From the NCBI GenBank assembly GCA_016188475.1, contig JACPHT010000006.1, positions 2,330 to 66,329 of the forward strand: a stretch of DNA of 64,000 bases. The letters are read 5' to 3'. Below, piece by piece: positions 7,050 through 13,142 of the stretch. Position 1 is the first letter of the stretch, and each line of letters opens with the position of its first letter. The notes under the pieces were generated by a model. That model made no database searches and was not told the DNA's origin. It saw only the letters and a program-made list of their open reading frames with translations. Origin of the DNA: Candidatus Uhrbacteria bacterium. GTDB lineage: Bacteria; Patescibacteriota; Patescibacteriia; UBA9934; GWF2-40-263. The translations under genes and the position numbers were made by a program.

Positions 7050-7078
7050 TTGTCTAGAGTTTGATGCTTTGTTATAAT
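7050..7078 (+). promoter_or_regulatory. Sigma-70 promoter of the tRNA-Asn/GIY-YIG locus
   Basis: TTGTCT-17 bp-TATAAT with extended TG. Confidence 0.7.
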
Positions 7079-7102
7079 CACGTCGTTCTTAATAATGAAC
7101 AT

Positions 7103-7220
7103 TCGGGGGTTCCGCCAGAGGCGGACTGACCTTTTTTGTCAGAGCTTCAGTGCTGCGCCCGCCTTTGGCGGGGCAGAGCAGTTTCAGCCTTAGGCTGACC
7201 CGCCTTTGGCGGGGGCTGTT
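7103..7220 (+). pseudogene. Disrupted duplicate of the tRNA-Asn 5' half with three palindromic insertions
   Basis: Removing the hairpin inserts leaves TCGGGGGT-AGCT(T)CAGTG-GCAGAGCAGTT-GGCTGTT, matching exon 1 at 7464-7497 plus the next anticodon base. Confidence 0.8.
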
Positions 7221-7224
7221 GATT

Positions 7225-7473
7225 ATGTCTTATACAATTTATATTCTGCGCAGTCTCAAAAATGAGAAACGATACATTGGTTATACTGGGAAAAGTGTTG
7301 ATGAAAGATTCCATGAACATTTATCCGGTACGAATCAATGGACTCGACAGAACGGTCCGTTCATTTTGATTCATACTGAGTCATTCAATGACAAAGAATC
7401 AGCCATTAAACGTGAACGTTTTCTAAAAAGCGGTCAAGGTCGTAAATGGCTTGATGAAAATATTCGGGGGTAG
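7225..7473 (+). CDS. Small stand-alone GIY-YIG nuclease (82 aa)
   Basis: YTIYILRS..RYIGYT..R..EH..G..WT..GP..E..A..RE..LKSG.GR; stop TAG is nt 8-10 of the tRNA. Confidence 0.9.
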   Translation: MSYTIYILRSLKNEKRYIGYTGKSVDERFHEHLSGTNQWTRQNGPFILIHTESFNDKESAIKRERFLKSGQGRKWLDENIRG

Positions 7474-7782
7474 CTCAGTGGCAGAGCAGTTGGCTGTGAC
7501 CAGGATCAGACGGTCCAAATAGCAGCTTCCGGTGGAAACATCGGATGAAAAATGAGGTGAATTGCTGGAAGTCTTCGATGAAAATATCTTGATAATCAGC
7601 AGCCAAGCCCCGCTACAGCGGGGAAGGTTCAGAGACTATCCGAAAGGAGTACTGTTTCGACTTTGGTTGAAACGGGAAGCGCCTCACGCCCTTTTGGGCG
7701 ATGATATAGTCCACCCCTTTGGGAAACCAGAGGATTATGTGTAACCAATTGGTCGTGGGTTCGAATCCCACCCCCCGAGCCA
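7464..7782 (+). tRNA. tRNA-Asn(GTT), intron-containing (exons 7464-7497 and 7742-7782)
   Basis: Joined exons give a cloverleaf: acceptor TCGGGGG/CCCCCGA, D arm, anticodon arm TTGG-CTGTTAA-CCAA, GTGGG-TTCGAAT-CCCAC, discriminator G, encoded CCA. Confidence 0.93.
7498..7741 (+). ncRNA. Group I self-splicing intron (244 nt, no ORF) between anticodon positions 35 and 36
   Basis: Exon ends in U and intron ends in G; IGS GCAGCT (7522-7527) pairs with exon GGCTGT with a U-G pair at the splice site; P AATTGCTGGAA (7560), Q AATCAGCAG (7594), R GTTCAGAGACTA (7627), S ATGATATAGTCC (7701); P3 TGAGGTG/CGCCTCA. Confidence 0.92.
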
Positions 7783-7971
7783 AAAAACAACCATCGTAAG
7801 TAAGATGGTTGTTTTTTGGCTCCGAACCCTGAACGAAATCCGAACTTTTTTTAGCGAAAATCCGAACGCTGAATTTTGAAAAATTTTTAAGCTCGGGCGG
7901 GCAAAAAGGAAGGAGGTTGGGGGGAAGGAATTTTTGCCCGCCCTCGCTTTTCCGCCGCCGCCGAATTTCGT
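7782..7971 (+). repeat. Left 190-bp inverted repeat of island
   Basis: Reverse complement of 12953-13142 with one mismatch seen; begins at the tRNA CCA and includes the terminator hairpin AAAAAACAACCATC/GATGGTTGTTTTTT. Confidence 0.95.
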
Positions 7972-12952: not shown

Positions 12953-13142
12953 ACGAAATTCGGCGGCGGCGGAAAAGCGAGGGCGGGCAAAAATTCCTTC
13001 CCCCCAACCTTCTTCCTTTTTGCCCGCCCGAGCTTAAAAATTTTTCAAAATTCAGCGTTCGGATTTTCGCTAAAAAAAGTTCGGATTTCGTTCAGGGTTC
13101 GGAGCCAAAAAACAACCATCTTACTTACGATGGTTGTTTTTT
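12953..13142 (-). repeat. Right 190-bp inverted repeat of island
   Basis: Reverse complement of 7782-7971. Confidence 0.95.

Follow-up and report, generated by a model that had tools for sequence, protein, structure and literature searches.

A candidate selfish cassette of a small GIY-YIG nuclease gene and a double hairpin at tRNA genes of Candidatus Uhrbacteria and related bacteria

How did the gene of an 82-aa nuclease come to lie between two copies of the front of one tRNA-Asn gene, and how has the tRNA gene stayed whole? The question is raised by positions 7050-7822 (+ strand) of the window, that is, the whole stretch of 64,000 nt analysed here from a Candidatus Uhrbacteria bacterium (GCA_016188475.1, contig JACPHT010000006.1, positions 2,330 to 66,329). 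Its genome is labelled G000, the genomes of relatives bear other G numbers and loci bear L numbers. The answer that we favour, with a confidence somewhat above even, is a selfish cassette: the nuclease would nick single-stranded DNA (ssDNA) about six bases from its own hairpin, repair would copy the tRNA front and the intact gene would survive.

Layout of the locus and its group I intron

The locus opens with a promoter-like site at 7050-7078 (+ strand; −35, 17 nt, extended −10), which is a consensus match only (10/12, TG present) and appears to be the native promoter of tRNA-Asn, as a similar −10 and leader stand before the intact tRNA in empty alleles. It is followed by a dead 5' copy of tRNA-Asn (nt 1-35) at 7103-7220 (+). 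Such a copy had been noticed in the initial annotation and is indeed present, but it measures 118 nt rather than 35, because it holds one extra base and three palindromic inserts (32, 20 and 30 nt), which had been overlooked. The first insert is a 32-nt double hairpin after tRNA nt 8 (7111-7142), found as a 30-nt version at the same place in G006. The second lies in the D loop (7153-7172), has 20 nt with one 15-nt hairpin, and resembles inserts in L199, L201, L202, L205 and L228. The third is a 30-nt double hairpin after tRNA nt 28 (7184-7213), a repeat associated with the clade of this nuclease. The copy closes with GGCTGTT (7214-7220), formerly described as ending at an uninterrupted anticodon; the letters are there, but that description hinges on a single T and the end varies in relatives.

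After 4 bp, the ATG at 7225 begins the gene of the single-domain GIY-YIG nuclease (7225-7473, +), and its stop codon, TAG, is formed by nt 8-10 of the intact tRNA-Asn(GTT) gene. The latter consists of a 5' exon (7464-7497, +), an ORF-less group I intron of 244 nt inside the anticodon (GT^T; 7498-7741, +) and a 3' exon with CCA at its end (7742-7782, +). A terminator-like 22-bp inverted repeat follows the CCA (7777-7822) and was not called by the terminator scan. The coordinates first given were correct, promoter, gap, ORF and TAG were all found as described, and the complete tRNA split at GT^T was confirmed by the intron's match to Rfam RF00028 and by ARAGORN, which called the joined exons as tRNA-Asn(GTT). 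Neither ARAGORN nor direct inspection found a second tRNA-Asn in G000. The reported absence of an integrase or transposase also holds, none being found inside the 370-bp unit or among the seven neighbouring proteins scanned. Public contigs of three runs from one study (possibly the source of the assembly) match the stretch without differences, which excludes an artefact of assembly. A separate cassette is bracketed by long inverted repeats (blocks of 131 and 58 nt) at 7782-7971 and about 12953-13142 of the window; it begins at the CCA end of tRNA-Asn and contains HTH, EcoRI-type methylase, T5orf172 and GmrSD-HNH genes.

The intron scores 83 bits against RF00028 (cut-off 50), with the core of that family, a U before the 5' splice site, a terminal G and exons that give the tRNA when ligated. 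Introns in tRNA-Asn have been reported from Patescibacteria. Bacterial tRNA group I introns are described in the accessible part of PMC3984707, and the intron of the window is an ordinary member of them, nothing different having been shown. Besides this intron, G000 has three others that score above the Rfam cut-off for group I introns, and one weak match; the matches listed for this genome are at C6:36914-37164, C3:7261-7509 and C3:8688-9283.

The initial annotation had tied intron and nuclease together: a homing-endonuclease unit bringing a replacement 5' half would have inserted at the anticodon loop, and the intron may protect the live gene, as in collaborative homing. Such homing is described in phages (PMC2988022, available portion), and in the window the dead copy does end at the anticodon, where the intron also sits. 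Furthermore, the intron most similar by local score is found in G028, also a carrier (195 vs 156 and 153), a resemblance that is the sole point suggesting a linkage of cassette and intron. The protective role fails on the counts. Among tRNA-Asn carriers of this clade 36 of 51 have no intron and 15 have one, and among the relatives it is no commoner in carriers (4/16) than in non-carriers (11/34; Fisher p 0.75, kin not being independent); the same-site intron is present in 15 of the 50 genomes with a recovered tRNA-Asn locus, the window's included. Moreover, L265 and L267 are near-identical cassettes, one with and one without the intron, half of the placed insertion sites lie at tRNA nt 8-17, the protein has no DNA-binding domain and related introns have an ORF of their own (106-107 aa).

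The octamer that had been pointed out at the left junction (7221-7228) and at the intron 3' end (7733-7740) occurs at both positions (chance about 0.2% if named beforehand), but its role in joining did not stand. It includes the start codon, and the nearest relative, which is intron-less, has a similar start context. As a functional join it was rejected, the 14 other intron-bearing carriers (14/14) sharing just 3-6 nt as their longest word. Collaborative homing is thus largely refuted already and we give it hardly any credence; the cassette does not need the intron, which is likely an unrelated neighbour or passenger. The ORF of the related introns is cysteine-rich and lies near the 5' end (L024:994-1314, L030:944-1264, L033:1763-2080(-) and L022), with a weak Pfam HNH match in one of the three tested.

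Recurrence beside tRNA genes and affinities of the nuclease

A genome-wide scan gave 431 homologues, the best 80 of which (57-83% identity) were read; a few of these 80 come from the same genomes as the 60 relatives. The association with tRNA genes, for which a count over homologues had been proposed, was confirmed in this set. A tRNA 5' part lies downstream in 78 of the best 80, within 160 nt in 75, while a partial tRNA copy of at least 8 nt lies upstream in 68 (chance 4.6%), 67 of them with the hairpin as well, and the stop codon falls at tRNA nt 8-10 in 32. Ten tRNA types serve as targets, namely Asn (51), Ala, Val, Pro, Ile, Met, Phe, Thr, Lys and Arg. DNA and protein searches of the 60 relatives yielded nine close orthologues (64-83%), all with the same layout at tRNA-Asn. 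In the wider family, a same-strand tRNA or tmRNA adjoins 98 of 145 small GIY-YIG matches of the 61 genomes, a floor, since ARAGORN overlooks intron-bearing and masked tRNAs; an opposite-strand one adjoins 2 of 145. Of 748 ordinary ORFs of G000 that served as control, 10 had such a neighbour downstream and 17 upstream. In 150 genomes drawn evenly from the phylum, 16 further loci turned up; each has a tRNA on the same strand no more than 700 nt away, and nine have a partial 5' tRNA copy, as judged by eye. As kin are not independent, all these counts overstate the number of events.

Other arrangements were also observed. At about 50 loci (L052, L057-L061, L064, L067, L069 and about 40 more) the gene lies downstream of a tRNA or tmRNA, a palindrome array with clade-specific repeats coming right after the CCA, then the GIY-YIG gene, and no tRNA being duplicated. 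A mirror-image duplicate of the tRNA 3' end was considered for genes downstream of tRNAs and discarded, with a match of at least 11 nt in only 2 of 51. In G000 itself another small GIY-YIG gene (L003, C6:35596-35939) lies 30 nt before tRNA-Phe, with a mere trace of a 5' copy, and two more have other palindromic repeats at their flanks and no tRNA (L001, C1:108255-108476; L004, C1:8565-8783). L001 has SRM-like flanking repeats and resembles an Ssn/SRM unit.

The 82-aa protein matches Pfam GIY-YIG (E-value = 8e-15) as a single domain, and the structure model is likewise one confident domain (pLDDT 93). Each of the residues Y6, Y17, G19, R28, H32 and E64 is conserved in 80-81 of 81 rows, the invariance of H32 and E64 being partly built in, because both belong to the search patterns. 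In the four of 11 pairs with unsaturated dS, dN/dS is 0.07-0.13, and purifying selection on the protein is shown at the level of such substitution ratios. The closest solved sequences and folds are UPF0213 (PDB 1zg2, 1ywl) and Slx1, I-TevI ranking lower, and the intron-endonuclease profile TIGR01453 is matched at positions 4-39 of 215 only (19.6 bits vs a cut-off of 56). No DNA-binding domain was found in the protein by profile search, structure model or fold comparison, which speaks against the homing-endonuclease reading. The protein thus lacks what homing endonucleases use to recognise long stretches of duplex, and it is better taken for an ssDNA nuclease guided by structure. A quick tree (139 of 145 rows, six short rows dropped, 85 columns, many open forks) places the SRM-flanked, tRNA-free Ssn-like proteins of these genomes in a separate clade (SH-aLRT 99), and in the same tree other protein clades have palindromes and layouts of their own.

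The double hairpin and the proposed route of insertion

The hairpins are the best clue to the mechanism. The 30-nt unit joins two 15-nt hairpins, and its full length comes close to two-fold symmetry; at 7184-7213 it was inserted with neither loss nor duplication of target bases. As ssDNA, either strand of the dead copy forms a far stronger fold than its shuffled versions (z −4.85 and −5.40). The double hairpin occurs at most 200 nt upstream in 59 of 80 loci of the clade and in 8 of 10 close relatives, as opposed to 2 of 135 other matches, and its stem position 3/13 alternates between A-T and C-G, with one mismatch among 110 hairpins; covariation and distribution of this kind show a hairpin linked to the clade and under selection for pairing.

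For insertion statistics the hairpin was placed in 52 of 57 loci. At tRNA genes in general it goes in with no target bases lost or doubled, and it stands after tRNA nt 8 (4 loci), 12-13 (10), 17 (13) or 28-30 (25), so entry at the anticodon loop, proposed at first, is not the rule; with ten tRNA types and insertions at positions 8, 12, 17 and 28, the cassette is not anticodon-specific. From the earlier picture of a small nuclease unit at a tRNA, what remains is that it is integrase-free, tRNA-linked and accompanied by a 5' duplicate; anticodon-loop entry, protection by the intron and the role of the octamer fell away. Past the hairpin, target bases still match for 5-8 nt in 38 of the 52 loci (mode 6), with the start codon soon after. 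The dead copy ends at many different tRNA places among relatives, with a modal 6 nt past the hairpin wherever the hairpin sits. A target rule AGYT was rejected, the left flank fitting 43 of 64 units at tRNA sites but, where no tRNA was called, just 5 of 49 sites.

The following route is proposed, with SsnA and Slx1 as models. According to PMC11893778, the cut made by SsnA falls a few nt upstream of its hairpin. The nuclease would likewise bind its own hairpin in ssDNA and nick a few bases away, and the position of the cut would set the end of the dead copy, which on the template strand is found 5-8 nt upstream of the hairpin. The product of repair at a tRNA gene would be the promoter, a hairpin-bearing tRNA front, the ORF and a fresh complete tRNA, with the target as the template of the duplicated front during insertion. 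Transcription of the gene would start at the tRNA promoter, with the last codons of the gene serving as leader of the tRNA. In six RNA runs, under a tenth of the words matched. Repeated rounds could give the tandem stacks and gene-less units that were seen beside the live tRNA in G028, G026, G029 and G031, dead copies would gather further hairpins, as in the window, and the same enzyme may also be what disperses hairpins without a gene over the genome. Because the tRNA 5' part stays intact in carriers, the sequence gives no sign that they would be immune to cutting.

The left arm bears on whether the front is copied from the target or brought along: it shows no difference from the host's tRNA variant in 31 of 52 loci, 1-2 differences in five and more in 16, the last mostly through extra inserts and in a few cases by equalling another plausible allele. 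At L055, L066, L053, L127, L142, L223, L233 and L242 the dead copy resembles another allele of the same tRNA, not the host's. In an alternative reading, a tRNA arm marked by the hairpin would belong to the cassette itself, and homologous recombination at the 5' end of the tRNA would bring the cassette in, with a circle or transforming DNA as the source, without any copying of the target; the nuclease would only stimulate the event. The foreign-looking dead copies are valid tRNA variants in themselves and are more easily explained by an arm brought in than by local copying. Three genomes (L015, L066, L137) share one type-B dead copy, and the live gene of one of them differs; the tandem stacks also agree with this alternative, and fungal mORFs bring in a foreign gene end likewise (PMC3630166, as far as its available part describes them). 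Conversely, one protein clade with one hairpin occurs at ten tRNA types with arms that are the host's variant in 31 of 52, so a carried arm would have to be remade at each change of target, and no circle junction was seen in the contigs of four runs. Target switching and host-matched arms thus favour an arm copied from the target and foreign-looking arms favour one carried in, while the identity of dead and live copies could also stem from later gene conversion. On balance we consider the carried arm rather unlikely.

Selfish movement, as opposed to host service, is suggested by the empty alleles. The tRNA-Asn locus was recovered in 50 of 61 genomes (the window's included), ten of the 60 relatives, without a usable locus, being excluded from the 2x2 comparison. 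Sixteen of the 50 loci are carriers (10 of this clade, six of other clades with other palindromes), three are gene-less or decayed relics and 31 have neither. In several of the 31, a promoter and leader of this kind lead directly to the intact tRNA, and one empty locus is in the same genus as filled G000 (G002); empty-site alleles, which the initial annotation had asked for, do exist. Likewise G036 is filled and G017 is without the cassette, revealing patchiness within a genus, and the nearest orthologue of the window's gene is in another genus. Decayed or gene-less relics occur in G032, G011 and G058 and a premature TGA in G019. Circles, back-joints and empty alleles of the same population were not evident in contigs of four runs from one study, contigs being prone to drop rare forms. 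A joint that skips the ORF (7220 to 7463) appeared in two runs with just 30-35 letters on one side and may belong to another organism. Carriage by phages was rejected, a single match (44%) being found in IMG/VR.

These observations bear on a further reading, in which a domesticated host enzyme, a modulator of transformation or repair like Neisseria SsnA, is expressed from the tRNA promoter and duplication and hairpins are old scars. It would accord with purifying selection on the protein, with the restriction of transforming DNA by SsnA in N. meningitidis (PMC11893778, in its available sections) and with there being just one distant viral match. Patchiness within genera, relics, repeated changes of the tRNA target and tandem stacks are traits of a mobile parasite and make domestication improbable.

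The 30-nt unit also occurs alone, in 22 of 61 genomes and in up to 23 copies (reversed-pattern control, 0); G000 has only two copies. No tRNA was called within 450 nt at 49 of the 67 hairpin sites read, and many of these lie inside long open frames. Of 44 distinct non-tRNA sites, 43 have the hairpin preceded by two pyrimidines or followed by two purines, compared with 47% in controls, and stem-loop sites are in weak excess (6/44 vs 3%). The richest genome, G008 (23 copies), gave no close orthologue with this query (best 43%), and G041 has the nuclease gene and no exact hairpin match, so the hairpin is not strictly tied to this nuclease clade. G008 and the 49 of 67 sites would suit a hairpin moved by another enzyme, with the GIY-YIG gene as a passenger collecting at tRNA loci. 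However, protein and palindrome pair clade by clade, and the spacing of hairpin, dead-copy end and start codon is short and fixed, which leaves the passenger reading very improbable and the selfish nuclease/hairpin cassette as the preferred one.

Several further insertions are worth recording. At L287, L292, L273, L278, L294 and L301 the hairpin lies in open frames of 370-850 codons, to which it would add ten residues. In G000, the tRNA-Val(CAC) locus (C10:142093-142261) has a gene-less unit upstream, made of tRNA nt 1-17, the same 30-nt hairpin and five tRNA bases; about 40 nt later comes the intact gene, with an older partial copy upstream and a copy of a 3' fragment downstream. The tRNA-Lys(TTT) locus (C1:49980-50247) has a 5' copy (about nt 1-58), an insert of roughly 95 nt, nine tRNA bases, a short spacer and the intact gene, the same pattern with a different insert.

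Relation to known systems and biological meaning

No published description of the cassette was found in the literature searched, which comprised few subscription papers and no supplements. The nearest parallel is Ssn (SsnA of Neisseria meningitidis, CDD cd10448; Chenal et al. 2025), whose insertion-sequence-like build is noted by its authors (PMC11893778, available text). As that text describes them, Ssn proteins are likewise single-domain GIY-YIG nucleases of 80-95 aa, Y6, Y17 and E64 bearing the same numbers by the published numbering, and the gene lies beside a cognate hairpin that is also a dispersed repeat. The word 'tRNA' has 0 occurrences in the main text of the Ssn paper (PMC11893778). 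In contrast to Ssn, the cassette is flanked by another 30-nt double hairpin, not NTS/SRM, and lies inside a duplicated tRNA front; the window's protein also falls outside the SRM-flanked clade of these genomes, in a quick tree where that clade is a proxy for cd10448. The best reading, by analogy, is that the cassette would be an Ssn-like nuclease/hairpin pair in its working and a sister clade in descent.

REPtrons (RAYT HUH transposase and REP palindromes) similarly have an enzyme gene beside its own palindrome, as well as palindromes that have spread without the gene to other parts of the genome, coding frames included (PMC3733652, accessible part), where 'GIY' has 0 occurrences; the enzyme of the cassette is GIY-YIG (Pfam GIY-YIG only), not HUH. 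Fungal mitochondrial mORFs (mobile endonuclease ORFs) likewise combine an intron-free nuclease ORF with a second copy of part of the host gene, which thereby stays whole, and differ by duplicating the 3' end of protein genes and by encoding large homing endonucleases, in the account that the available part of PMC3630166 gives. The cassette, unlike them, duplicates the 5' part of tRNA genes and is hairpin-marked. Slx1 is near the window's protein in fold and sequence and cuts branched DNA, but it is larger and works with Slx4. Integrase-type tRNA islands have an integrase and a duplicated tRNA 3' end; the cassette has no integrase and duplicates the 5' part. The co-occurrence of nuclease and intron at the intron site, typical of collaborative homing, was not found for the cassette.

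Seg proteins have extra DNA-binding domains. The cassette shares with Seg-type systems the filled and empty alleles at one site, not the joined DNA-binding domains. SegB of T4/T6, a free-standing GIY-YIG homing endonuclease of phage tRNA clusters, is tied to tRNA genes of many types as well and can cause tandem amplification of tRNA segments; it differs in being phage-borne and in its listed target, a tRNA intergenic region, and the available portions of its two sources describe no partial tRNA copy or cognate hairpin (PMC2988022, PMC13096335). Taken together, the cassette would act like an Ssn/SRM pair or a REPtron and spare its host gene like fungal mORFs, yet it appears to be a member of none of them.

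The recurring layout beside many tRNA types in ultra-small bacteria likely marks an undescribed selfish DNA element, and this locus adds the tests of intron and octamer, the statistics of sites and distances and the preference of the dispersed sites. Such a cassette accounts for partial tRNA duplicates and also for tRNA-Asn genes missed or miscalled by ARAGORN. More tentatively, it may be a minimal mobile element, in which an 80-residue ssDNA nuclease and a 30-base double hairpin, a different one for each clade, would suffice for insertion at tRNAs, rebuilding of the tRNA from the target, switching of tRNA type and genome-wide seeding of gene-less hairpins, with no integrase, transposase or reverse transcriptase. 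For CGTC repeats, the accessible text of PMC3733652 states that a known transposase is wanting. If the selfish reading is true, the cassette would be a candidate mover for palindromic repeats without a known transposase and would give a role to the abundant 'hypothetical' small GIY-YIG genes. An essential single-copy gene would be parasitised in streamlined genomes without an integrase, and nuclease/hairpin pairs would extend beyond Ssn, with substrates and cut distances that may be read from genomes.
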